Source of the DNA: Trichoplax sp. H2
Taxonomy: Eukaryota
Length of the DNA stretch: 64,000 nt
Reading direction: 5' to 3'
NCBI GenBank assembly: GCA_003344405.1
Contig: NOWV01000010.1
Coordinates: 124,001-188,000, forward strand
Within the stretch, counting starts at the first letter, position 1, and every line of letters begins with the position of its first letter. Positions 10,795 to 63,900 of this stretch are shown one piece after another. The notes beneath the pieces are model-generated. The model did not search any database. It saw only the letters and a list, made by a program, of their open reading frames with translations, and was not told the DNA's origin. The translations under genes were made by a program, and so were the position numbers.

Positions 10795-12355
10795 AGTACT
10801 GTACTGTAGAGTTGCAAGTTCATAGTACAGTACAGTACTGTACAGTATAGTACTGTACTGTATAATCGAATCCGCTATGCGAAGGTAACAACGTAACAAC
10901 CATACTGTACACTGTACAGTACAGTGTACTGTACAGTACTGTACAGTACTTTACAGTATAACAAATGTAATAGCACAATCCAGGGTATCTACAGTATGTT
11001 AACTTCACGGACACATTCACTAAACTTTACCCCCCCCCCCCAACTGTCTATGCAAGAATTGTTCAATCAACTCATTCTCTTTCATTAGGTATAAAATTTA
11101 TTTGTAAAAAACAAAAATTTTTTTTATACAGTACAGTACATTTGCAAGTACTGTACAAAAAAATGGAAAAATTCACCGTCCACAGCGTACACTGTACAGT
11201 ACAATACTGAGTATGGAAAATACTACCATGTACTGTACTGTACTGCCTTATTAAACAGTTAACTTCACAGAATCACGTACAGTACTGTACTGTACACTGT
11301 ACTGTACTGTACAGTACATAGTACGCGAAGTATCGTAGAATGTTCTGTATAGTACAGTACACTGTACTGCACAGTACAAACTGCGTGTTCTTTCGTCAGC
11401 CGATTCCGACAAACGGTGTAACTACTGTACAGTATGTTAAGCAAGAGTACGAGTACTGTAAGTGTACGCTTGTACACTGTACAGTACAGTACAGTACAGT
11501 AAACGGACAGTCAGGTAGAGATAACTTTCCGCTACTTTATACTGTACAGTACAGATTCTTTACAGGAGAAAGACGTACAGTAGAGTACAGTACAGTAGAG
11601 TACAGTACAGTAGAGTACAGTACAGTACTGTACTGTACAGTACTGTATTAGACAGTACAGTATACTGTAAGACTGTACTGTACTGTACCGTACTGTATAC
11701 TGTAAGGACATACTGTACACACCGTAATGCAAACTACTGTATACTGTACTGTACAATGTTAAAAATGATTCAAAACTGGACAGGTATCATATTACCTTTA
11801 AAGGTACAGTATCGGAGAAGACGTGTAATAGAGGATTGGAAGACCGTTAAGCTCGGTTTATGTTATTAGTTGAAACTCGTTTTCTAGATCAAGATTTCCG
11901 TTAACGAGCAAGCCCCAACTGCCATTGGATACGGCAAATGCAGGATTCCTTTTTTACCACTTCATTATTGGCATACTAGCTAGCTAAAGAGTACGCTTTA
12001 CTTAAATTGTATCTGTATATCGTGCATCGAAGAGTCTAGCTAAAGGTAGGGTACGAAAATGTAATCTAACGACCTATTACAGCTTATTGTTTACTATCTA
12101 GTTGAAATTAATTTGCACTGAAATACTGTAAATTGGGACCTTTTGCAGTATTTGGAAATTATATTATGTTATGAATCAACTTATGATTGGAAAAAATCAA
12201 GCATTGACTGATGCCCTGACACCAACTCTTTGCACCGTTCTAAAGCCATGTTTATATAGTATATACTATACTGTGTACAGTACTGTATGCAGTACTGTAC
12301 AGTATATATTATATATAGTATATACTGTACAGTATAGTATATAAGCGTATACAGT
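10795..12355. repeat. Large mixed CAGTA/CTGTA pentamer island between the divergent UBL gene and KDM4
   Basis: Very dense units at 10795-11760 and a second cluster at 12255-12355. Includes a 15-bp higher-order unit (TAGAGTACAGTACAG)x3 at 11581-11625 and a poly-C run at ~11030-11041. Confidence 0.9.
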
Positions 12356-34661: not shown

Positions 34662-35768
34662 CGATTCCGACTACCTGACAGCCAACACAGGTTCAAATAA
34701 TATAATTATTGAGGACAAAAAATGTGACACGATAGCGGAACGCATGAATTGGAGCGGCTAGCGAAGTTTTTATTTTTTTACTGTCTAGTACGGTACTGTA
34801 CCATGTACTGTACAGTACAGTACTCCATGATTCAGCAGTTCACAGTACACAGTACAGCACTACAGTAGATATACAGTACTGTACATTGTACGGTGCGGTG
34901 CATCCAGTAGTCCATGACTGTACAGTACTGTATGAGTTGATACTGTACTGTACAGTACAGTACTGTAAGTACTGTAGCTCCGGCTGCTAGAAGCTGATAC
35001 TGGACAGTAAATTGTACTGTACGTTACTGTACAGTACTGTAGATCCCCGCCACCATGGGAGCTAGCTAAAAAGAAAGAAACGACCAGTGCAAAACACAGT
35101 AATGTGGAGGCTTTTTATTCATTCTTGGGGTCATTCTACTACACGTACAGTATATGCTACCGATGAAACCNNNNNNNNNNNNNNNNNNNNCGATTCCGAC
35201 TACCTGACAGCCAACACAGGTTCAAATAATATAATTATTGAGGACAAAAAATGTGACACGATAGCGGAACGCATGAATTGTAGCGGCTAGCGAAGTTTTT
35301 ATTTTTTTACTGTCTAGTACGGTACTGTACCATGTACCGTACAGTACAGTACAGTACTCCATGATTCAGCAGTTCACAGTACACAGTACTGTACAGCACT
35401 ACAGTAGATATACTGTACAGTACTGTACTGTACTGTACAGTACACTGTACGGTGCATCCAGTAGTCCATGACTGTACTGTATGAGTTGATACTGTACAGT
35501 ACAGTACAGTAAGTACTGTACTGTAAGTACTGTAGCTCCGGCTGCTAGAAGCTGATACTGTACAGTAAATTGTACTGTACGTTACTGTACGTTACTGTAC
35601 TGTACTGTACTGTACTGTACAGTACAGTACAGTACTGTAGATCCCCGCCACCATGGGAGCTAGCTAAAAAGAAAGAAACGACCAGTGCAAAACACAGTAA
35701 TGTGGAGGCTTTTTATTCATTCTTGGGGTCATTCTACTACACGTACAGTATATGCTACCGATGAAACC
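34662..35768. other. Segment duplicated on either side of a 20-N gap (34662-35170 vs 35191-35768); probably two uncollapsed haplotypes
   Basis: Near-identical unique sequence, both copies ending or starting exactly at the gap 35171-35190. Differences are mostly in pentamer content. Confidence 0.85.
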
Positions 35769-37260
35769 GTATACAATCCAGTCCAAACTTAACAGGCTAA
35801 TAGTAGCTAATTTGGACGTCAATGATAGACAGTATAATGGACCGTTGCAGACATGCGATACACTTGAAATGACCAGTAAAAATAATCAGCCTCCACATCA
35901 TGAGGATACAATCATTCCTTGTCTCGTCTCTTTCTTTTAGCAGTCCCTGCCGCCACTCTATAAATAGTAAGTGGATAGTTTCAGTAATACTGTAGAGGTC
36001 AAAAATACAGTAGAAGAAAAAAAATGCTACAGTACAGTACAGTACAATACAGTACTGTTGGTTTCGTGGTTCCAACTAGTTCCGACGACAGTACAGTACA
36101 GTACAGTACAGTACTGTAGTGGTAATTGTAACAATTAAAGACTTTTTATCAAACTACAGTACAGTACATTCAGTTTACTGTACAGTACTGTACCGTACTG
36201 TACTGTACTGTACAGTACTGTAAGCTTGACAGACCAGACCCGTAAACAGTAAACGTGTTACGTGTTACTGTGTAAGGCGATTGGCCATTACATTTCAAAA
36301 TGAACGATGAAAATGAAGAANNNNNNNNNNNNNNNNNNNNCAGACATGCGATACACTTGAAATGACCAGTAAAAATAATCAGCCTCCACATCATGAGGAT
36401 ACAATCGTTCCTTGTCTCGTCTCTTTCTTTTAGCAGTCCCTGCCGCCACTCTATAAATAGTAAGAGGATAGTTTCAGCCATAGAGGTCAAAAATAGAAGA
36501 AAAAATGCTACAGTACAGTACTGTACAATACAGTACCGTACTGTTGGTTTCGTGGTTCCAACTAGTTCCGACGACAGTACAGTACTGTAGTGTTAATTGT
36601 AAAGACTTTTTATCAAACTACAGTACTACAGTACATTCAGTGTACAGTACGGTACTATACTGTACTGTACTGTACTGTACACTGTACAGTACTGTAATAA
36701 CGTTGACAGATTTTTCATTTTCATTCACTGTCACAGTACTCTACAGTACAATATTGATTTTTACTGTACAGTATGTACTGTAGCCTAGAGCTACCATAAG
36801 AAGTACTGTACTGTACTGTACAGTACTGTAAGCTTGACAGACCAGACCCGTAAACAGTAAACGTGTTACGTGTTACTGTGTAAGGCGATTGGCCATTACA
36901 TTTCAAAATGAACGATGAAAATGAAGAAGCTAATGCCGAATTGAAGGTTTACTATTTGTATCCTATATTACTGTTGATCCGTATCTTGTATTTCAGTATT
37001 CATAATAATGCCTAAATGATTGGCATTACTGTTTCTCTACTACACAATTTTGTCTTTATTATAAACTTCAGCTAGTTTATGTTTGTCTCTGCTACTCTAA
37101 TACTATCTACAGTACAGTACGGTCTTTCGCACAATTGTACACTGCAGTAGTAATACAGTTACAGTATTGCAAGCCCGCGTACGTTTCCATTTCTATTACT
37201 GTGCTGTACTACCGTATACTGGACTGTATGGGTATTTGTTTATTACTTATCTGTACTGTA
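34780..37260. repeat. Mixed CAGTA/CTGTA pentamer island in the TNPO1-YIPF1 divergent promoter, extending into YIPF1 intron 1
   Basis: Densest arrays in the window, for example 35575-35640 and 36090-36220. Confidence 0.92.
35848..36928. other. Second segment duplicated across a 20-N gap (35848-36320 vs 36341-36928); probably uncollapsed haplotypes
   Basis: Both copies start CAGACATGCGATACAC and end ATGAACGATGAAAATGAAGAA. Gap at 36321-36340. Confidence 0.85.
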
Positions 37261-40200
37261 CTTACGAGATTACTCGTACACGAATGCTGCTAAAATACAG
37301 TAACTACATCAAATCATCCACTTCTCAGTCGTAGTTATTCATGGAGAACGCATTAAAGTCTTTTGAAGCAGCTATGCAGTACCGTATTACTGAACAGTGA
37401 ACAGTATACTTGCAGAATCTGCAGACCCGATATTAGCAACAAGTATTGAGTATTTGTATTCGGTAATATTAGGTACTAGCATTTGCAAGTGAAACTGCCA
37501 ACGTGTCGATTGCTTGTAATAGAAATGCTGCGCAATTTGACTACGTAATTTACTGCTCGTCAAATACAATATACACAAATAAAGCCACTATAGTCAATGG
37601 CTAACAGCTTCCACTTTTCGATGCTTGATGAAGCCTGAAACTTGACGCTTTATCCACTACATACAGTACGTGCAATACGTTCATCAGATGCTCACTCACT
37701 TTATGGATAGTAGATTCAAGCACATTTTAAATACCAATTTCTCTGAATACACATCTTCCCATTTACGATTACAAACATTCGTACACTATAGAATCATATT
37801 GCATATACTGTATGCCGTTAATTAACTATAAAGAATTACAAAAATGCTTGAAGGAACAAGCTGTCTTGCACCAACTAAATCTGAATCTGAATACAGTACA
37901 TAGCACTGATTACTGTAGAACTTGAAAGCAGGCTGAAAACTCTACTCTACTGCATATCACGACATTAACACTGGCTATGGAACTATAGGTTCAAGATATT
38001 GTAGAGTAGTCATACAGTATGTTAATGTAAGCGTATACGTCAATATTTCACCAGCAGCTCTTGAAGTTCGTAACGAAGAAACAAATAAATAAATAAGTAT
38101 AATCCTACTACCCAGTGATGTTGTAATCCAGTAATACTATTCAGACGGACCTGATAACGTATGTGTACTGTAGTAGAATGTAGTAACTGAATATTCTTTT
38201 AATGTAATGCCCGGAAACAAATTTTTAAATATGTATCTAGACCCAGAAAGACCAAGACGACGTTTCCGTTGGTAGCTTGCAATTTCAAGGTATTTTATGC
38301 TACTTTTATAATTGAACATTCACAATGTTGGTAAAATTGAAGGAGCTAACTCTAAAAATTTGGCAATAACGACTTTTGAGAAAAAATAGTAATTTGAATG
38401 CAATCGTTTAAAAAATACGGTATGTGATTTGCTAATAACTTTATATAGAGTTTGGAAATGGAAATCCGGCGACAACTATACCATTAGATGCTGGAGAAAT
38501 TGGAGATGCAGGTCTCCAAACAAATCGTGGGGTGCCCATTTCATTTGATAGCGCTGGTAAGTCTAAAGTTTTTAAAATATAGTACGTACAGTGTGAGGTG
38601 TACTGTATAGTATACTATAGTACTGCATATTCTGGTAAATGTATAGTAGATTGATATTGCAAATCAGAAAATTTACTAACGTCAACTTCAGTATAAATTA
38701 ATCCAATGTTAATCGTATAGTATATACCACTCAGTCACTACGGCAAAGCAATCGCCAATACGTATATGTCTAGTATTTGTATGGCCTTTAAATAATATTA
38801 CACATTAATTAATTATTAAGGGTAATGTATGTGTATTCTAAATATATATGATGTTCATTATATCCCCCACTATAGATGAACAAGAGGATACAGCCTCAAA
38901 TGTAAGTTATCCCATAGACACTTTACTATACGTTATGCAACTCGTTCAGTTTGTAGCAAAGGGCAAACGCAGTACTGAGAGAATTGCATTTTATCCCATA
39001 GATCGTAGTGACAAATGTTGCATACGAAATAGCGCCTACGGTGCATATTGTATGATAAATATGTATCTGACTATGATACTATGCGAACGAAATGAGCTGA
39101 TAAAACTTGGAACGATAATATGATAAAACGAATAACTTGATGAACAGTTGAAATTCTATTCCCTATATTGTACACATATCGCTAGTAATCAAAAGTGGTT
39201 ATTACAGAAATCGATGAATACGATAGTACTATACAATTCTGTAAAGATAAACAATGATAGATCCATTCTTCTACTGAGTATCTGCCACCTAAGAGCTTTC
39301 GAAAGTTGGGAGTCATTTACAACAATTGCGAACATAATGCGTATGTCGCGTGTGTAATGTATGTCTAGTAATACGCGTTTTATTCTCGTAATTGATTTCT
39401 TCTTCTAGTTATTGACTAATAAACGAAAGAAAAATATGCCCATGTGGACCTTCGATTACTATATGCAATTCTTCGACATAACCACAACTCAGGTTTCGTT
39501 TCTTAGATAAAATAAGGGTTTTTTAATGTTTTCATTTAATTTTTCTCTTTGTTCAAAATCTCGAAAGTTTCTGTGAGCATGTTGTTAAAAGTTCGGTAAA
39601 ATTCGCTACTGACACTGCAAGCTATTTAACGTAAGGTATAGAACATAAATAAGTAACGCCTGTATTTCAGGTTTTACAGAGAATTACCGGATCTGTTATT
39701 CCATCGTTTCAAGGAAATTATTTAAGAAAATATATACGAAGTAACCCTGATTTTTATGGTCCGTTTGCAGAGATCATAAACTTTGAATCAATATGACACA
39801 ATTGCTTTTTAGCTTCTTTAAATAGTGTACCGTAATGTAATGATCATCAACTGCATTTCGTTCTTAAAGGTCCTTTTTGGATATGTGCTACACTAGTATT
39901 CACTACTGCTATCAGTGGCAATCTAGCTGATTACATCACCCATGCTGGAGATCATCAATGGACATATGACTTTCATAAAGGTTGAATATTTATATCAATC
40001 AATAATGATAATTTGCTGAGTTCCAATTGTTCTTTAAATTAAAATATTAAAATTTTAAGTATTATATGTCGTTGTTTGTTATCTTATTTGGTATTCATAA
40101 AGCAAATTACTTTTAGTTACTGCAGCTGCTGGCGCAATTTATGTCTACGCTTGGCTTTTACCAGTTTTGTTGTGGGGTTTACTCTGGTGGAGGCACGACA

Positions 40201-46800: not shown

Positions 46801-49800
46801 CTATAAATTTGTAATTTTGTTATTGCCACTCTCTTTCGAATATCTCGTATTCTTGTTTACGTTATCATCATTTGGCGTGTATGACTGGAGAGTATAAAAG
46901 AAGTAGGTTAATGTTGTAAGTTTTATATGCCGATTAATAGTTATAAGGTTCTTATTAAACTAGGATTTACCGTACTATATATACATTGTGGTACACGTAT
47001 TTTTAGTGTAACGTTGTAAAACTAGAACTCTCTCACTTAATACACCTTGCAACGCTAATAAGGCACCCATGCAAAGACTTAAAATAGCTCCCGGTGCTGC
47101 TATTTATTATCTAACTGCTCACCGCATAAGGTCCCTTAGATTCATGAAAATTTTCTGTTGTATTTCTAGTTACGTAAGTTGCTTTATCATCCGTTCTCGC
47201 AGTATCATTAGGTGATGTCATACGTTTAGTACTGGCAAACTTAACAGTACCACTCGTTCCCAAGATTTGTGATTGCCAAAACTGAGAGCAGATATTGTGC
47301 ATCTAAATAAAAGAGCAAGAAATGATGTTACAGCCTTAGTAACGATAATATTGTGAGATAATTTCGGTTGTAAACGATCAAACATAGATGTACTTCTCGT
47401 ACAATGCTGTATTATACTATCAGATCTCAAAAAATGACAATCAAAATTACCGGTCCAGTAACCACAGTATAAAAGACAAATAAAAAGATTCCCTGAAAGA
47501 ATTAATAAATAATAATAATATTAAGCACTACTAATCAAATCACGACTTGAGCAAAATAATTTAGCTTTTTACCAAAATCGAATTCAGAATTAGATATAGA
47601 ACAGCCATAATGGTGGAAATTTCTCTCATATATAATATAGCAAAGGTCCATGTCATGATGAGCAAAATAATGCTTATAACGGATCCCTGGGCTATCGTTC
47701 TACATTTTTTTGTCAACACGATTTCAGAGAATAGCAAACTTATAATAGATCCTTTTTTAGGCCTGAACAAACACCACAATTCAGTATAATTATATAATTA
47801 TCAACCTGGGGCTCCCCGCATAATTCTCTTGTTCCGTTCTCCTCCTCATTGATACTTCATGCATTACGCGTGAGCACATAATAACGCTTACCTAAAAATT
47901 TTTTAAAATGCCGAATATTAGGTATTGGATATTAGTTCTGTTACATGCAATAATTAGTAAACAGCAGATGCACTCATATTATTATGTAGCAACATACACA
48001 AAATACTTACTACAACAAGCAATAAAACTTCCCCAACAAACAACCAAAATGCTCCGCTACCAATCCTCAGCCAACAACTAAAAGTTATTTTTTAATTAAA
48101 ACATTTATATGCAGTATTTATAAACATTAACACATTCGTAGAGTTGCAAGTAAGCATAAAAAATTTTACTATCCATAGTTAGTGAATCCTCTTTGAAGTT
48201 ACTTTCACATCTCAAGATAATAGTGATAATGTTACTATCATATCAGACTAAACAAACAGAAACGTAGCAAACACGACATGTATATTCATGTCACACTACA
48301 AGTAAGAGATTAATTCTTAATTTAATAACATACAACTTATCCGTGCCAAAATTGTCTGAAGCGGCAAATCCAGCGATGACAACGGTAATTGCCGGAATAG
48401 CTATAAATTAGAACACCCCAAATGAGAATTCTTTTAGATATGAATGCTGCACACTTTAATATTTTGGTAGTATTAAACGCTTATAATTGATACATGCACT
48501 ACAGATAATCTAAATTTAGTTTCAGTATTTGTCATCTTACCGTAGGCGAATATGTAGCAAAATCTTTTCTTTAATTTTTCCATTATATGAAAAGTTCGAC
48601 GATAAATTTCGAAGCTGCTGATAAAGATCCAGAAAAACGTGCACAAAGAAAAGTAATTTATAGAAACCGCCATTGCCAGACAAACGTCCTAATTAAAACA
48701 GAATAAAACCCAAGTTTCCAGTCAAGAAGTCAAACCTCATAAAATTAAAGCTTACAGACTTAAAGATATGCAAAAATAAGATTTAAAAACGGGTTGTAAC
48801 GTATTGTTAAGAAACTGTATATCGTTGTAGGATGATATTAAATTTATCCTTCATATATTAAAACTGGATTAGTAAAAATACTCTTCTGAAAATTACAAAA
48901 CTAAAATGTTATGATCATACCTTATTTTTGGTTTGATATATTGAAAATAGACAAAGTAACTCAAACACAAACAAGGTAAACAGGATGTTTAAACGAATAT
49001 GGTTCATGAACGTATTTTGCGATCTGTAAAAACAAAATTTTTAGTTACATTTGAAAATCCAGCAAGTATTTCACGACAAAAGTAATAAAAAATAAAAAAT
49101 ATAAAGCTTAACAAATGATTTAAAAATTCTTTATCAGAAAGTACAATCATACCGAAACGAAAATAGAATTAACAATGCCGTTACAATCGCACCAGTGGCT
49201 ATACTGCAACCGATAATAGTTATTTCCTTAAGACTTTGAGGAATCTAAGAAAGTGTAAATACGAATATATTCAATCATTTTATGAATGCTAAAGAAAAAT
49301 CATAACAGAATCCACGGTCACTCACTAAATTCTTTCGCATAGTCTCTATGACGGTAAAACTAGTAAGGTGATTGCATCGACAAGTGATATGGGTACTGTT
49401 AAATAATACCACTGAACAACCCCGATTATTCCATAATCCTTGAGCTTGCCTAATCAATGACAAAACATTTTTATTCTTACAATGAATTAAAATCTAATGT
49501 TGCATAGTTATAGGCTTACGAAGTTGAGAAATCCCAATAAACGCATTTTTTCTCCGCATCATCTCTGGTAGCCTAATCAAACAGTCAACAATCCTGTTAA
49601 TTCACGCTGTTAACTTGTTATGCAGGATTGGAAACGATATCTTATCAAAATCGAAAAAATTTTATAAGTAAATAATCCGAACTTCTGTATATTTGATAAT
49701 GTAGATAATGGGATTTTCATTTAAGAACTTTAAAGATAAGGAAGGCTTCGTCGAAATAGAAACGATGGCACCCAAAATTTTTTGATCAACGGCAACACTT

Positions 49801-52800
49801 GTGTTATTTCTAATTTTATTATCACTGTTAAGAGAATTTATTATAACATTAATCGGTACTTCCAACCTACTTATTCGTCTTGATAATGCTGTTTCGGATA
49901 TATTTTTACTTACATTCCAGGTATATATTCTGACAATAAATTAGATATCTGTTTGTAGGCTGCATATGCAAGTTGTGATTCTATTAAAATACCAAGTAAG
50001 AAATTCCAGTTATTTCCGAGATGGCAGAATTTACACAAACTCACTTAGAAAGGGTTTAGGATAGTAAAAATTTACAAGATTTTCACTAAAATTACCTCTA
50101 CACGTAAGAATAATCAAGAGTGACACACAGAAAATTAATCTTTAATGCTAGCAATAACTACCTCCTGAAGTTGCCAACGCTAAAGGAAGATTAACCTTTA
50201 ATGTGCTAGCAAAGCTAGCAGGATTAGTAGTAACTGGAAATGTTACAGACATTGGAAGATTCACTCTCAACTTTGAACTTACAACAACTTGAAAATAAGA
50301 ACAACAGCCATTAATACAGTTTTTAAGCATATATTACACTCATAGCAGAATTTTCTATTAAATACGGATACTTTTCTAGAGTTTATTACTCACCAATGTT
50401 CTTAGTAATTATGGTAATATTGGCTTCAGCAACATTACGCGTATTGTTAGTCCAGAGAAATGCAATGTCATCAATTACACGCATTAAATTTGTGGCCAGA
50501 GCCATTCTTTGTGCCTAGTGAAAGATTAGTAATTTACAGGACATTAACAATATGCTCTAAGTTACAATCGATCAATACTTTGAATACATTATATTTTTAT
50601 CAAAAGTCACTACATCCATTATCAAGTGATTACCTTTTTAAGTCCCACCCATCCGTTATAGTGTAGAGGATCGATAAGGCTACTAGAGCTTTCAATTAGG
50701 TCCTACCCAATGAACGAAATTTGCAAACACGTACGATAACATAGATTAGCGATTAGACTTTTGCTCAATGTTAATACTTCTTTTATAAACGCAATATTCT
50801 GAATTTGAATTGTATAACAACTGTTGATTGCAACGCTAATAATTACTGATCTTAAGCTGTTCTACAATTAGAAATTTCACCTTCAAAAAATTGTTAATAC
50901 TAGACTTTTCAGTTTTCCTGATTTCGTCCCTTTTTTTCGCTAATAATCGATTATATATTTCAATAGCTGTGACGATATCCCCTCCATAGACGGGTTGATT
51001 AAAACCTGTACTGAGTCTAAGTGAAGCCGCTAAAAGTGTGCTATTGGAATCTGGCCTATTAGCCTAAAATTAAAATTAAATTTTATCAAAAATGCCTAGC
51101 AGTTATGACAATTTAACAAAGCTTATTTCTACATTCTGTTTACGCCTTAGTAAGGAAATACGGTAAATTATGTCTCAGAAATCAACATTGCACTAACTTG
51201 ATTTTTAAGGCTAGTGAATCGTGCAGATTTGCATTGGCTAAGATCAGGCCAGCTTTTTGACCAATAATCAGCTGATAGGCAATACCAGGTAGCCGTACCT
51301 TAGATAATTAATGTAGGAATATAACGTAAAAGAAGATAAATAAAGCTATTCATATTCTCTATTTATTTTTTCAAGATATTTAATTGGCTATTAAAGGCTG
51401 AAGGCTATCTTTAACTTAAAAAAAGATGCAATATTATATAGAAATATCATTCTTATCTTTTATGAATGGTAATCTTACCTGTACTACCTGCAGGGCAGGG
51501 CTTAGAATTGATCTTTCCAATCAATGTTCTATCCCAACGGATGCCTAATACTAATGTAGAAGGGCACCACTGAGACGATATCGTACCTTCGGTTGGCGCG
51601 GAACTTTTAGTAGTTACTTGGGTCGTTATAGCGTTAGTGCTAGCAGTAGTAATAGTGGTTGCTGTTGTAACAGGTCTCACTGTAATACCTAAGTGTATAA
51701 GCAGCGTGCTTAGTCTGAAGAAATCTCTAAAACTTCTTAGGATAAAAATTCTAGTTTAGCACTTTACTCTCGTAATAATATCTCTGCAAGAACTGATTCA
51801 ATAATATAATAAATACTATCTCACTTACTCGATACATTAAGGGTCATGTGATAGCGTTGAGCATTCGATATGTTATTACTTGCAGTACATGTATACGTCG
51901 AGCTATCAATTAAGGATGTTTTAGGAATATAAAGATACGAAACTCGAACATAAAGTTTATGATAAGTTTGCCAGGAATAAATTGATGATGAATTTGTAAT
52001 ATCTCGGTTTTGCTTGCTCCAGGTAATATTAGGTATTGGTGAACCTGAGGCGAAACACCGAAGAAGGGCGGCTTCACCTTCTTTGATATTTAATTTGCTC
52101 GTGCTTTCACTAACTAGGATCTTTGGCGGCACTGAAGCAAATAAAAACATAATGCCAGTATTACTTATAATGAAGACTTTATTACATCAATGACAGCGTA
52201 AAATTACTTAATCAAGCCTTCCTAGTATAAATGGCGATTTATAGTAGGATATTAATAATAAATTGCTAACTAGCTACAGATATAACAGTGTTTAGATCTC
52301 ACCTTTTGGACAAGCTCCATTAACAATGTCACACGTAGCACCGTTTGGACAATCACAAGTTAATTTACAGTGATCTCCATAGGTACCTGCTGTGCATGCT
52401 AGAATAATTTAGATAATATTATGAAATAAGTTCTGCGAAGAGCAAAATGATTGTAGCTATGTGATTACTTATTAAATAAAAAAACTAGCGGAATTGTATA
52501 GGCACTATTATACTGTCGTGGGATGTAGAATTTAAAACAGACTGAATAAAGAATTAAGACATACGATCAGTACAGTCATTTCCCTTCCAGCCGGTTACAC
52601 AAGTACAACCACCAGGGCTTCTTGTGCACACTACTTGACTGGTACATGATCCCTTTGGACATCTTTGATCACAATTATGTCCAAAATAACCTGCAGAGCA
52701 AGCTAAGATAAGAATGAGTGATTAGTTTCCGCTAATACGTACAATGGTAATGCACTACTCAAAAGAAAATAAAACGCTCAGGGCGCTAATTGTATGCATC

Positions 52801-55800
52801 CTATGTTTGGAAAAAATTCACAACAGCATTACAATATACAGCGAGAACTCTAGAACTATAAAAATGCATCAAAATTTGTAAATTTTAGTCAACTACAAGT
52901 TTAAAACCTACTTATTTCGCAATTATCTCCAGCAAAGCCAGGACTGCAAATACATTTACCATTAGCTGCATCACAAATGCCACCATTAAAACACGTGCAT
53001 GTGCCATTACAACGACCACGACTAGTTGAATACGTCCCTGCTGAACAAGGTTGAATTACCAAATTTACCCAGGCATTTCGCTCGGCATTGCTTGATTCAC
53101 ATTTATACATTCCACTGTTAAAGGCATCGGCTGAACTGAAGACTATATCTTTCCCGTTATTTTGAATATTAATAGAACTGGAAGTCTGAACTTCTTTACC
53201 ACGTCGAAACCACTTAAATGACCCACTTAAGGCAGTAACGATTTTTAGTGTCGTTCTCTCCTGAACTGCTCTAGCAACATACGGCCGGACAGGTTGAATA
53301 TCTGTAGAAAGAATAAAAGACATACCGTAACGGTAGCAAACCTTATTGCATTACAGAGTATTCCTGCTACACTGTAGCAGGAAATAAAAGATATCAAACA
53401 TTATGTGCCATAAAGATATCCCTTTCAACAAAGCAAAAAAATAATAATTTGCAAAGTTCAATACCTCGATCCTTATTATAGATTGCGTTAGCATATGAGG
53501 TAGTAGCATTAGTTGAAGCAGTGCATCGATATGGCCCAGCTTTAGCACTATCAGATTTCAACCTAATCACTCTTTTAACAATACCATTTTCTTGTATTTG
53601 TGGCTGCACACTATACAAGCTGATACCAGCATAATCAGCATCCCATCGCCATTCTAGCGAGACTTTTTCTGGACCCTCAAAGAAACAAGTAAATTCTACT
53701 ATGTCATTGAAGATGCCACTCGTATTATAGAATATGCCGAAATTGGTTGCATCTGGAATTGATAGCACAAAAGGAATCAATTTTAATCAAAAAAATCTTC
53801 GCAATAATATCATCTACTATAATTAATGAAGATACTGAGTAAAATTCTAAAATCTACCGTAAAGAAGTCTGTTAAGAATATCATAAAGATTCCAATTATA
53901 GTGCTGTCATATGTCTTTTTTTATAAGTAATGTGTAAATCGGAAATGTATCATCTACCATTATCAGTTGTAAAGCGTAAATTTGCTGTAAGTATTTCATA
54001 TTAAGAATTTAAATGGCGCTACTAGCTTTCAGTCATGGCGAAATTTCAAGACTTGTAGTAAAGATGATAAAATAAAGCATAGAAGTACAATCACTATTAA
54101 CTAAAGTAGATTCATAACTCATGAAAACAAAGTAAATAATACTTTGTATTATACATATTAGTTAATTTCACTCAAAGAGGATAAGCCCGGACAAGTATAT
54201 CGCCTCAAATATTCCACAATATGCAATAATAATAAAAATTCATGCAGTCAATAATTATAATGAAATGCTTTAGTTGATGATAGATAGAAATAAAAAATGT
54301 AAATGGAACCACTTGGCCTCTAAAATCTTAATAAGAACGTTGATCAAATACAATTACAAGATCCTACAATCACACGCCGTGCTTGTACTGTATATTGCAT
54401 ATACAGTAGTGGTTCAAGGGCTACTTTTACTGAAAAAACGATACTTTTTGAATGTAGAAGAAACCATTTAACTCTTTAAACTGATTTCCGTCAAAGCAAG
54501 AAAATATGTAGAACGATTACATGTCATCACCAATTTAAAAAATTTGTACATATTGTCTAACATTGCATTTTTGTGTAAGTATACGTATGCAGGTATTTGA
54601 TTTATTATGTTATTAACCAATATTATCATTCCAGTTTACGGTGTAAAAGCAGAGGTAGCGATTCTATATTATTTCAGTTCATTATAAGTACTAAAGACTT
54701 AAATTAAAAGATTGGCTACCGTTGGTGCTATTTTATGCTTGTTAAGCCTACTCCGAACCAAAGTTTGTTATTTTGAAATGGATAACTTAAGATATTCATT
54801 TATTCGAATCACCTAAATTCGCTCAATATAATCAGTTCCTACTCTTCAAACTATTATCGCCTATATAATTAATTAATCAGCAGTCAAATCCACTAACAAG
54901 AACAATTCATGTTTGCTTTACAAATCAACTATCCAATAGTTCAATTAGCAAATCGTTGCGTATACGCGTTTTGTTAAAACACATTTCTAATTCTGATTAA
55001 AAGCTGTTTTAATGTTACTCCAAACTGTGGGCTTTGATAAATCGATAATGAACTAACCGAAATGAGAAGTGAAGACTATGTCAATGGGGAAAACTGGTGT
55101 TATCTGCGATCGTACGCGATTTAATGACTGAATAGGCACAGCAATAGGAGGGTCATCTTAAATTAGTATTCTATTCAAAAAGCCTTGTTTAGCTATTTAA
55201 CGCTATAATGAAAAACATTCACCATAATATATTTTCTATATTAGCAGTAATTTTACAGTATAACAAGATATATTGTAAAGATATGACATTTTCGGTTAGT
55301 ATGTGTATGAGCTATTACAAAAGTATCCCTCAATCTCCTAGCATCACTAATACTCTCAGACTTTTTATTACAACACCATCGATACCATGTCGAGGCGAAG
55401 ACTGTTCCTTCAACATTACTTGTTAACTAGGTTGATCTCCTCGAGAACTTTAAAGATCATATTTCATCGCACTAATTTTTCTTTTATTCAGGGACAAATT
55501 AAACAAAAATTGTAATTAATTCTAGTCATATTAATCAGCGTTAGTTGAGCTTATTAAAATGAGAAGTAGAGTACGAAATAGATCGATAAAAAAAGTCATA
55601 ATTCTAAAATACGAACTAGTAGTAATTGCACGATTACTTCATGCGTTTAAAGTAAATAATATATTATTCATTCGATATGGCGTTTCTTACAATCCAGTAT
55701 AAAATTATCGACGAAATACCAATACTAACTACAAGTGATGCATCATATAAAATAGCGCCAAAGCTTTCAATAATAAAACTCTAAGAAATATAAGATTGAA

Positions 55801-56435
55801 AATTAAAATAAGAGGACGCTGTAGCGTAACTAATTCATCTCATCAATCATCGTGATACAGAAAAATCTGTACGGATACCTATAACATTAGGGTAATTCAA
55901 TGTAATTGAATTAGCTAGATAGATAAAAAGGGATAGTAGCAGCTAAAGATTAGGTGCGAGATTGACTAAAGAAAGGAACTTGACTGACTGACCAACAAAT
56001 AATTGGGTAAATAAGATGATATTTACTTAATATTAAAACATACATTGGGCCGGCATATTTTATCAATCATAAACCTAGTAATAAAGTTTAGGGAAATATT
56101 ATCACTTAGTGATAGCTGAAAGAAACAAATTGTGAGATTTAGGTCTATAGTAAAGCTTGATTATAACCAATAAATGAAAGCGATTACATGCTGTCATCTG
56201 ATATTTGCGATACTAGTAAAAATCGAATAACGACAATGTTGGCCACACTCTAAGGCTATTTACATAAGATATCCCTTAAGCCTCGGCCAATAACTGTATT
56301 ACGATGCGAAAAACGATAATACATACTCACTATAACCACGTTATCAAAAATTCAATTTAAAATTGACTTACCAATTTGGATAGCTAAACAAAGTAATAAG
56401 GCAATAGAATGAATGAAATATGTCAACTTTCCCAT
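46801..56435 (-). CDS. Adhesion GPCR: signal peptide, Ig-Ig-EGFx3-Ig, Thr-rich stalk, HRM, GAIN/GPS, 7TM, C-terminal PDZ motif
   Basis: Putative signal exon MGKLTYFIHSIALLLCLAIQI at 56435 (linkage inferred); Ig exons ~53755-53465, ~53300-53060 and ~52130-51830; EGF exons; HRM WCP...W..T...PCPAGSTGTATWYC...GPDLSQC; GAIN PVYGGDI; GPS CVYWDF...WNNRGC...CRCNHL/TSF; 7TM exons ~49245-47450; ends KITNL*. Confidence 0.88.
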
Positions 56436-60984: not shown

Positions 60985-63900
60985 TCAAAAAAGTGGCTTA
61001 GCACCAGACTGTTCAAATTCAGTCCAAGCTTCATTTAATTCTACAAATATTGCCCTAGCCAATTTCTCATGTGGCTCTCCAACAACCTAAAGTCAAAGTT
61101 GCATCAATAAAACAAAATTTTCAATCGTTGAACAAACGATGTCATTCCAAAACTTCCTTTACAGTTTTACCTTGTCCGGATGAATGCACAAGCACGCTTT
61201 TCGGTAGTATTTTTTAACCTAATCACATATTAAAGCATTTAAAGATTAGTTAAATGCTCAGTAAAGTCTTATCCAATCTTTTCTTTTATACTAACATTGT
61301 TCGATTCTATCACTTGGTGCATTCCTATTTCCTTCCATTTACAACCTTCCCAAACAGCAGTGTGTAAAGAGCAAAGTAGGGCCCGAATGTTACCCTTCTG
61401 TCCTCCCACCCAATCTTGAATCTAAAAATTATACTATTACATTACTACCAAGTAAAATCCAATCAAAATGATCAATCAAAAACAACGAACTTTTAATTTA
61501 ATAGGGTCAGTTGTCTTTTCGACTTCTTCTCGTCTCATTTCATTGATAGTTACGTGACCTTTGTCATGAGCCTTCGGTATAAATCCTTGAGCACCAAGTA
61601 AATCGCTGAACTCATTCTTAGCAACGTTTGGCTTGACACCTAGAATTTCAGTTGATTTAAATTATATATTTATTGCTGAAATTAAAAGTTACTAAAATCA
61701 TCATTATCCTTTACCGTTAGAACCACGTAAGCCTCGTTCTTCCCTTGATCCAATAACATATGATGCTCTTTGTCCGGTAGGCAAATTTCCAATCGGTGAT
61801 TTCTGTGTCGGTTTTTGAGCTGCCATTGGTTGCTTGTTGCCAATGTTGTTTGTTTGGTTCAGATTAAGATCAAATTTACCCTGTGCAAGTGACTCTAAAT
61901 TACTTCGAAAACCTTGTTTCTTATTATCAGACTCCCTTTTCTGTGGCTTTATGATTGGTTGATTTGAAGTGCTACTTGGTTGCAATAGTTCTGGAGTACG
62001 GCGTTGATTTGTATCGCCCGTAGCTCCAAAAGGATCAAAAATTATGCTTTCAGGACTATGAGTGCGTTGAGCTGATGGACTCGGGGCTCTTTGAGTTGCG
62101 AAGTCGAAGACATCTGGAGAATCCTTTGCCCTTGGAGATATGGATATCAAATCGTCCTTGCCAGAAACACTTTTATTATTATTTTGAGAAAACGGATCAA
62201 AAGCGTCTAGTTGAACAGCGCCAGCAGGGTTTGTTTCAGGTTTCTTTAAAGCATTATTACTAGCTTTAACAGTTGGTGCAAAAGGATCAAAAGAATCGGA
62301 GGAAACTGCTTTCGTAGGTAATTTGTTATCGAAAAAACTTGAAAAAGGGTCAGTAGGCGAGATCGGAGATTGATTTACTAACTCAGATATCCGATCAGCG
62401 CTCTTACTTCGATGCATCCCTTGAGACTTTTGACTTATCTCAAGATTGATCAAATTAACTTCAGAACTTGGAGATACGAGCTTTACTGGCGGGCTCTTCT
62501 GTAAGAATTTATCGTTAGAAACACTCTGATGTGAAGGAGCTGCTGTTACATTCGAAGAGCTAAAATCTAATAATGTGTCCTCTGTCTTCGTAGTTTCCTG
62601 CTCGACGTTTACGACGACTTTCGCTCGGTTTAAAAATCTCTCCTCTGCTTCATCCGCGCGATTTACAGCGTCCGATGTTAAATCAAGGATATTTCCAGGA
62701 TTGGAAGACGATTTACTCAATCCGCTAGTATCTCTAGTAGCTGAAATTGAATCAGCACTTTGCTTTCGCTGTAATGCTTCTGTTCGGGCATTGTCTAATT
62801 TTTCTAACTTTTCATATGAAATAGTATCCATTTGGCCTTAATAAAAATTTTAATATTAGCTGACATCAGTTAAGATCTGTTTATGCAGATATTCAATGAT
62901 ATCCTTACCATACTGTAAACGAATCGTTTCTAGCTCCTTCTTGGATGAGAGACATGGAAATAATATCACACGCTCCTGAAGATGAGTAGCATCTGGAGGC
63001 AGTATCGGATCGGGCTCATCATCACTATCATCATCCATATCTGTTGGACCCTGATGAGTTTTTAATACGCTCACAGCCAACTCTACATGAAATCCAGAAG
63101 GGTACTTATCGGGGTTGTCCTCATCTATATGATCCAGCTTTGATCTAAAACGAACAAATTATTTATGACTTTGTCAATATAACTTAAAAGGAAAATTTAA
63201 TAAATAGATTAAAAACCTACATCGAAAACTTATATCCTTTTGCCTCTGTTTCAACAAAGCTCGTATGAATTTGCAGTTGAAAAATTGGAAAAGATTGAAT
63301 CTGAAAGACATAATTCTTATTTCTAAATTCTTCCTTATTATGCCAGTTGAGACTATTCTTAGATTACCTCTCTGTGTATTTTTGATGACAGCGTCGAGCG
63401 AGCGTGATAGACTGCTATCATTACGTCACCCCTAACAAGAGTTCCTAATGGGAACATAATTTTGCCATCGCTACTATTGTAAACTCTAAAAATGTTGAAA
63501 GAACGTAGTATTATGTTTCCAACTACAGTTATTAACCTTTATGAGTAATAACTACGATTGTAGCAAAATCATCGGACTATAAAGTAAAATCAATACCTCA
63601 TCTCTTCTAAGGCATCCTGAAAAGTACACACCCGCCTCGTGTTGTTCTCAAAAACCTCAATATATGGCCGACACCCGATCCTAAATTAAAACAACGATTA
63701 GTAAGGAAATGCAATCTTAATGGATAATTTTCATGGAGTACATACCGGGCTTTGTTGAACAATGGAACCGGAGTAATAGAAATGCTGTCTAATCGTACAG
63801 TATGCTCATGAAGACTGCTTTTTCCCTTGTTAACAATTGTAGAAAAATACCTAAGGAACCTATAAAATAGTATGCGAAATAGAATTATTAGAAAAAATTT

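Follow-up and report, generated by a model that had tools for sequence, protein, structure and literature searches.

A minus-strand gene in a 64,000-nt stretch of Trichoplax sp. H2 DNA (contig NOWV01000010.1, positions 124,001 to 188,000; hereafter the window) encodes an adhesion G protein-coupled receptor (aGPCR) whose extracellular head resembles that of the receptor tyrosine kinases Tie1 and Tie2. In our view, this is probably a placozoan aGPCR with a latrophilin-like part made of HRM, GAIN and seven-transmembrane (7TM) domains, which acquired by exon shuffling, as its head, an Ig1-Ig2-EGF1-3 module truly homologous to that of the Tie family, in addition to a generic Ig domain and a mucin-like stalk. 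The receptor is genuine and expressed, with the head and 7TM exons on one spliced transcript, and it belongs to a known receptor class with a head combination for which no description was found in the literature searched, being neither a Tie kinase nor a proper latrophilin.

Gene model and domain organisation

The gene model, built from a three-frame reading and splice sites, spans positions 56435 to 46801 (-) in 26 exons. All 25 introns have GT-AG ends, the coding sequence is 3,471 nt long, and the translation is identical, letter for letter, to the NCBI model 'Adhesion G protein-coupled receptor L3 [Trichoplax sp. H2]' (1,156 aa). The interval 51830..53755, for which a first-pass annotation of the window had proposed a Tie-like Ig-Ig-EGF3-Ig ectodomain, comprises exons 2-6, and the domain order of the complete protein is signal peptide-Ig1-Ig2-EGF1-3-Ig3-Thr/Ser stalk-HRM-GAIN/GPS-7TM-tail, distributed over the gene as follows:

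56372..56435 (-), coding part of exon 1: start codon and signal peptide, aa 1-21 (hydrophobic at 11-29; RNA joint 53752/56372 in three of four runs)
53465..53752 (-), Ig1 exon, aa 22-117, with canonical Cys44/Cys98 (Pfam Ig_3, E 0.006, under the cut-off)
52912..53301 (-), Ig2 and EGF1 in one exon, aa 118-247 (Pfam I-set 2e-5, EGF_2 3e-7; PDB match Tie2 2gy5)
52565..52702 (-), EGF2 exon, aa 248-293 (Pfam EGF-type models 4e-5; PDB match Tie2)
52303..52398 (-), EGF3 exon, ending after the sixth Cys, aa 294-325 (RNA joints on either side)
51829..52131 (-), Ig3 exon, a generic I-set domain, aa 326-426 (Pfam Ig_3 4e-16)
51479..51688 (-), Thr/Ser-rich stalk (aa 428-465, 50% S/T) and first half of HRM (Pfam HRM E 0.005; local HRM profile E 1e-12, aa 468-521)
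49520..51298 (-), remainder of HRM and GAIN, exons 8-15 (Pfam GAIN 2.5e-17)
49326..49449 (-), GPS exon with the cleavage motif His811-Leu812↓Thr813 and a tethered-agonist-like peptide (Pfam GPS; motif in a 20-row alignment)
47451..49244 (-), 7TM domain, exons 17-24 (Pfam 7tm_2 7e-29; seven hydrophobic segments at 835-1061; RNA joints)
46801..47302 (-), cytoplasmic tail to the stop, exons 25-26 (RNA and gene model; ends in Thr-x-Leu)

The transcribed 5' leader extends to about 56867, and at the other end we take the terminal Thr-x-Leu to be a class I PDZ-type motif. The proposed order of Ig and EGF domains was borne out by Pfam, but the annotation had overlooked that EGF3 carries six Cys only, a truncation that is genuine according to the RNA joint 52131/52303 and the intron, which offers no usable frame. 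The EGF sequence quoted in the annotation is present with one junction residue changed: ahead of the first EGF2 Cys, splicing in phase 1 produces a Thr instead of an Ala. Phase 1 is in fact common to all six introns between the signal peptide and the end of Ig3, which is the anatomy expected for a shuffled cassette; the earlier suggestion of a shuffled module is supported in this respect, as a matter of exon anatomy alone.

The head compared with Tie2

The head follows the Ig-Ig-EGF-EGF-EGF-Ig order of Tie1/Tie2 (TEK; 2gy5, 4k0v, 9lv4) and shares with these receptors an Ig2 without the canonical disulfide and an EGF2 with a widened C3-C4 gap and a P-x-G-C-x-C motif, so that Tie-specific features are found in the Ig2-EGF1-EGF2 sequence, with counter-evidence from repeat scores that is weighed below. 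Among PDB sequences, Tie2 ranked first of 23 for the Ig2-EGF1 exon (E 2.8e-7, 2gy5 chain residues 163-230) and first of 13 for the EGF2 exon (E 2.8e-8, chain residues 233-277; next family at 0.019), in register in both cases. Taken as one stretch, receptor aa 179-322 align with Tie2 chain 163-307 at 90 bits (E 1e-24), whereas the next EGF protein reaches 40 bits and, as a control, a generic three-repeat MEGF exon from the same genome scores 62-68 bits.

The cysteine spacing of EGF2 (8-3-4-5-6-1-8) is the same as in EGF2 of an amphioxus protein described below and differs from that of Tie2 by a single residue. Between C3 and C4 there are 4 residues in Trichoplax and amphioxus and 5 in Tie2, against 1-2 in all 31 generic EGF repeats sampled from MEGF-type arrays of the Trichoplax genome. 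The Tie-type spacing is that of EGF2; EGF1, with its 8 Cys, and EGF3 are generically spaced. Ig2 contains a single Cys185, lacks the B-strand Cys and runs straight into EGF1; one Cys is also found in the amphioxus Ig2 and none in the Tie2 alignment, the canonical disulfide being absent in all three. In addition, the first match in the ESM Atlas (0.94, 189 of 256 features; next match 0.83; a single source) was an echinoderm 'tyrosine kinase' cluster, 12% of whose members carry Ig_Tie2_1.

It is this conjunction of features that leads us to consider homology of the core (the end of Ig1, Ig2 and EGF1-3) to the Tie head very probable, judging from sequence, while Tie derivation of Ig3 and of most of Ig1 is unproven. 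The module claimed in the first-pass annotation is thereby narrowed to the last strands of Ig1, Ig2 and the three EGF repeats, for which PDB matches, amphioxus and the cysteine gap agree, leaving aside Ig1 as a whole and Ig3, which look generic. Tie receptors also differ in having three FN3 repeats, a single transmembrane segment and a tyrosine kinase, none of which was encountered by Pfam in the Trichoplax receptor, where HRM-GAIN-7TM, a six-Cys EGF3 and a generic Ig3 are found instead; further differences are an Ig1 unrecognised by Ig_Tie2_1 and the replacement of Tie2 ligand-site residues.

A Tie-type module in amphioxus and the search for relatives

Among 158 proteins, obtained through a search with the receptor half and not with the head, one carries a Tie-type module matching that of Trichoplax (98 bits, E 5e-30), namely the automated Branchiostoma lanceolatum model CAH1242710/CAH1242711 ('FCN1'). 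Receptor aa 82-335 align with residues 93-349 of the longer isoform, CAH1242710, at 29% identity from the last strands of Ig1, the only part of this domain to align, to EGF3. The amphioxus module is itself close to Tie2 (CAH1242710 106-351 against Tie2 75-319, 150 bits, E 3e-43), and EGF1, EGF2 and EGF3 of Trichoplax each score best with their amphioxus counterparts among the five amphioxus repeats (113, 98 and 81).

The two proteins have in common the N-terminal Ig-Ig-EGF3 head and, further on, an EGF-Ig-Thr-rich stalk arrangement and GAIN-7TM; they differ in that the amphioxus model lacks HRM and has additional EGFs, a fibrinogen domain and GAIN-7TM twice in tandem. Because of these additional parts the model is probably chimeric, and it should therefore be taken as a hint at, and not as proof of, a second aGPCR with a Tie head. 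The RefSeq model in the same protein cluster consists of a 448-aa GPCR part only, and the amphioxus 7TM domain lies elsewhere in our tree, though the approximately unbiased test does not reject one clade with the Trichoplax receptor (p-AU 0.055). As it stands, the amphioxus chain unites a head of the Tie type with a fibrinogen domain of the ficolin/angiopoietin kind, followed by the Ig-Thr stalk and the two GAIN-7TM units. If the link between head and fibrinogen domain is real, a receptor module and a domain of the ligand type would reside in the same protein.

Word-based homologue searches that used the head as query recovered nothing beyond the protein itself (1 of 337 and 1 of 404 candidates) and missed Tie2, so that they do not inform on the distribution of the module. 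The exhaustive HMMER search was performed with the HRM-GAIN-7TM part, because a control, in which an array of 15 repeats reached 256 bits, showed that such arrays would score above genuine modules; the best 150 of its 3,789 matches, with identities of 23-33%, include no close orthologue. The top match, Strigamia T1IXT1, has two tandem GAIN-7TM units and probably represents fused neighbouring genes. Within the Trichoplax genome the Tie-type head was found in one copy, with no second one detected using CAH1242711 as query (19 of 88 candidates scored), and searches with Ig_Tie2_1, Fibrinogen_C, HYR and Pentaxin gave no candidates, an uninformative result as their controls were silent or nearly so. 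FReD (fibrinogen-related domain) genes missed by standard models are reported in the literature (PMC6321704). The EGF matches that were inspected, on contigs C216, C253, C308 and C353, belong to four MEGF-type EGF-array genes, the one on C216 having an LDLa-like start and its repeats in one 388-aa open frame.

Homology or convergent assembly

The most serious alternative is that generic Ig exons and EGF exons of the MEGF/SREC type were combined independently in placozoans, in which case the likeness to Tie would reflect a shared repeat grammar and the head would be an extended adhesion rod. We consider this unlikely, but several results point its way and weigh against homology. Taken singly, the repeats score no better with their amphioxus partners (113/98/81 for EGF1/2/3) than with the best generic MEGF repeats (113/103/110), and EGF2 with its cysteines masked loses the partner preference (28, against a generic maximum of 44). 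EGF3 has only six Cys and, against the PDB, places Tie2 second (E 0.063), behind another EGF protein. Ig2 scores 65 with the amphioxus Ig2 and up to 80 with generic Ig domains. For Ig1, the comparison with amphioxus Ig1 gives a z of 0.6, the first match is MuSK, and Ig_Tie2_1 (PF10430) was not matched at E 0.1 or at E 1, a search that had no positive control, the amphioxus module having been Pfam-scanned only as CAH1242711, which lacks Ig1. Ig3 is likewise generic, Tie2 not being among the best 60 of its 163 PDB matches. Finally, the comparison depends on a single homologous gene with a Tie-type module.

The predicted structures are also divided. The Tie2 head is reportedly compact in the 2gy5 work, with Ig and EGF domains packed together. 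A first model of the Trichoplax receptor was good in the receptor half and poor in the head. In a second, made from an alignment in which Ig1-EGF3 was covered by a single homologous gene, the three Ig domains are folded and EGF2 is not (pLDDT, the per-residue model confidence, of 35-40); with EGF2 in this state, the model shows no Tie2-like packing. In a Foldseek search with this predicted head the top two places go to Tie2 structures (433-443 columns), but they are ahead of titin by only some 1.5 orders of magnitude, at a root-mean-square deviation of 23 Å and a TM-score of 0.2, and Tie2 is not in the best 50 of VIA-align, whose lists are filled by generic Ig domains.

MEGF10/11, PEAR1, SREC/SCARF and Draper share with the head the 8-Cys EGF type and the generic spacing seen in EGF1 and EGF3, and Pfam EGF_PEAR1L matches the receptor with an E of 5e-6, under its cut-off. 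Several MEGF arrays with phase-compatible repeats exist in the Trichoplax genome, and the N-termini of aGPCRs are known to be widely shuffled, commonly so in placozoans (PMC12716839, PMC6321704). However, MEGF/SREC-type proteins have long arrays without flanking Ig domains and a single transmembrane segment, whereas here three repeats, with an atypical EGF2, precede a 7TM domain. Convergence would moreover require that several things coincide independently: an Ig domain that lacks the B-strand Cys and passes straight into EGF1, a C3-C4 gap in the second repeat that none of the 31 generic repeats has, three repeats in register, and similarity reaching back through the Ig1/Ig2 junction. To the question raised at the outset, whether the best matches would be generic MEGF/SREC repeats, the answer is mixed: the whole stretch prefers Tie2, but single repeats score equally with MEGF.

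The receptor half

Homology of the head to Tie concerns only one side of the protein; the assignment of the other to the aGPCRs, proposed in the first-pass annotation, is confirmed. Pfam finds 7tm_2 at 101 bits (cut-off 20.6), GAIN at 63.5 bits and GPS at 52.4 bits, and scans of single exons give GAIN 7e-4, GPS 2e-11 and 7tm_2 5e-4. The protein has the secretin-like 7TM domain with seven helices, the GAIN and GPS directly ahead of TM1 and the adhesion domains in the same transcript that characterise the class, and its predicted HRM-GAIN superposes on the HormR-GAIN of latrophilin-1 (4dlq) with a TM-score of 0.82. His811-Leu812-Thr813 and Phe815 are invariant in the 20-row alignment, in agreement, as a sequence motif only, with the H-L↓T/S consensus, and the peptide that follows the cleavage point is close to the tethered-agonist consensus of the family. 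Inside a GAIN intron, 50045-50095 (-) is a 51-nt open-frame phase-1/phase-1 stretch with AG and GT ends; by length arithmetic it is not in the RNA records, and it may be a minor alternative exon or due to chance.

The best PDB match of the receptor half is ADGRL3 (E 7e-69), and among the ten best library matches, identified by their names or by Pfam, are Lingula L3, insect Cirl and amphioxus L2, with 26-30% identity. Trees were calculated for 52 and 32 of 159 proteins, picked by rank and architecture. In the 32-row 7TM tree the receptor falls on the latrophilin side (96/92), albeit on a very long branch, and a grouping with CELSR is not rejected (p-AU 0.108), so that the placement is tentative. 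By sequence, then, the receptor half is latrophilin-like, with about 30% identity and an intact cleavage motif. Latrophilins (ADGRL, Cirl, LAT-1) have the same order of Thr-rich stalk-HRM-GAIN-GPS-7TM and a PDZ-type tail, but differ by their SUEL/rhamnose lectin and olfactomedin domains. Neither was found in the Trichoplax receptor, the former by Pfam and a local profile that matched 67 of the 158 other proteins, the latter by Pfam, and the parts that bind teneurin and FLRT are therefore absent.

The ligand question

The fibrinogen-like domains of angiopoietins bind Ig2 of Tie2 (PMC8560823), and a competing designed binder at the angiopoietin site contacts Tie2 D152, V154, Y156, F161, S164, R167, R192 and I194 (bioRxiv 2026.05.01.718274). 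Aligned by eye, at low identity and in an uncertain register, five of the six alignable residues are gapped or non-conservatively replaced in Trichoplax (the six read Ser for D152, Lys for V154, Phe for Y156, Glu for F161, Glu for R192 and a gap for I194), S164 and R167 lying in a gapped stretch. Because these residues are replaced, an angiopoietin-type ligand, with the fibrinogen domain that the first-pass annotation had entertained, appears unlikely. The better guess, and the most likely ligand, would be a protein of the matrix or of cell surfaces and not an angiopoietin; that Tie receptors do have partners of this sort is seen in the binding of SVEP1 to TIE1 (PMC10129328).

A homologous head could also have kept its ligand type, namely a secreted FReD protein, in placozoans intelectin-like, so that a pairing of FReD and Tie head older than the angiopoietins would here signal through G proteins. 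Besides the binding of angiopoietins to Ig2, this idea can draw on the 31 intelectin-like genes of Trichoplax sp. H2, 28 with FReD support (PMC6321704), and on the amphioxus gene model, whose single chain combines a fibrinogen domain with the Tie-type head. The placozoan FReDs are however divergent, short and intelectin-like rather than angiopoietin-like (PMC6321704), and most residues of the angiopoietin site are replaced, so that we rate it as quite improbable.

Transcript evidence

RNA contigs from four runs, which are assembled contigs and not single molecules, were aligned to the locus. Spliced joints (15 listed, among at least 25) were observed in three of the runs, and run X6 had none; X10 and X7 were taken as RNA by guess, their joints skipping GT-AG introns. 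The spliced record 2 of run X10 (3,819 nt) contains the signal-peptide, Ig1, Ig2/EGF1, EGF2 and Ig3 exons together with two 7TM exons, with 2,567 coding nt ahead of exon 49023, exactly the figure of the gene model. Record 18 of run X7 independently joins Ig2/EGF1 to 7TM exons, with 1,288 nt from Ig3 to exon 49023, again as in the gene model. The possibility, allowed for in the first-pass annotation, that the Ig/EGF exons belong to a separate transcript is contradicted by these two bridging records.

Run X5, which is on record as RNA, presents the same joints, but with head and 7TM on two contigs, and the contig depth of head versus tail differs in opposite directions in X5 and X7, which we do not read as isoforms. 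An artefactual fusion of a neighbouring Ig/EGF gene with an aGPCR gene by gene prediction might be suspected from the separate contigs of X5 and from the assembled nature of the records, but it is already largely refuted and hardly credible, since spliced records from two other studies span head to 7TM with the exact coding length, the introns from Ig1 to the stop are all 70-256 nt long, the stalk exon is in frame, and there is a single signal peptide and a single stop.

The RNA contigs also show non-synonymous variants at 49789, 50469 and 51562 in HRM/GAIN (V732D, D630N and P469L, respectively), and all five variants in head exons are synonymous; as read from RNA alone, these are probably allele or strain differences.

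Neighbouring genes and other features of the window

Five of the eight neighbouring open reading frames have a Pfam match, to housekeeping genes (WDR36, JmjC, importin-beta type, Yip1), and this check revealed no paralogue adjoining the receptor gene. Dense short-period repeats with a 5-base unit occur at 11300-11900 and 35300-37300 (68 and 53 copies/kb, against 7.7 for the window), and two 20-base N gaps lie at 35171-35190 and 36321-36340. The region 61704-63158 (-) is a long low-complexity exon with many DPF motifs and no Pfam match; we assume a resemblance to the tail of an auxilin/GAK-type protein.

Discussion

The Trichoplax protein is likely an exon-shuffled adhesion or mechano-receptor. 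In aGPCRs, the receptor cleaves itself, the fragments associate non-covalently, and a tethered peptide acts in a ligand- or force-dependent manner with G-protein output (PMC13197933). By analogy, the GAIN domain would cleave at His811-Leu812↓Thr813 with the fragments remaining associated, and the head, carried on a glycosylated stalk, would bind a matrix protein or a protein of a neighbouring cell. Pulling on the bond between head and ligand may then expose or shift the tethered peptide, which would activate the 7TM domain and the G protein, while the PDZ-type tail might hold the receptor at junctions. The clustering-driven kinase activation of Tie2 does not apply to this receptor.

A full-text literature search, with subscription papers and bioRxiv supplements outside its scope, turned up neither a GPCR nor a placozoan protein described as having a Tie-type head. 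The receptor accession is absent from six supplementary files of PMC6321704, and the portions consulted of PMC8662651, PMC5237311 and PMC4302439 contain nothing on it. The deepest Tie cited in the literature searched is sea-urchin SpTie1/2 (PMC12113024). A 2019 review described early aGPCRs of this kind as lacking HRM (PMC6422961), though the HRM-GAIN-7TM combination has since been shown to be older than the metazoans (PMC12716839); the Trichoplax receptor adds a placozoan example in which an HRM precedes a core of latrophilin-like type. Its significance is tempered by the fact that head shuffling is common among aGPCRs, especially in placozoans: in the same organism and class, 28 C-type-lectin aGPCRs (PMC6321704) likewise bear recognition modules of single-pass receptors on a 7TM domain, with a different head.

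We tentatively suggest, as a possibility short of an even chance, that the Tie head was a compact, mobile recognition unit already present in the common ancestor that placozoans share with bilaterians, at a time when there were no vessels, no angiopoietins and possibly no Tie kinase, that it keeps the Tie2 fold here, that it came to sit on aGPCRs at least once and perhaps twice (in placozoans and in amphioxus), and that it binds an older matrix ligand, SVEP1-like proteins being a candidate class. If the homology is true, the Tie head module predates the placozoan-bilaterian split and is far older than the vessels under its control today, Trichoplax having no blood vessels, and the same extracellular unit would have been wired both to kinase clustering and to tethered-agonist G-protein signalling. 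The receptor would then offer a construct with which to study what the Tie head recognised before there were angiopoietins, with a bearing on the non-angiopoietin ligands of Tie1, and, if the unit is as ancient as suggested, this receptor would be where to look for the ancestral Tie ligand.

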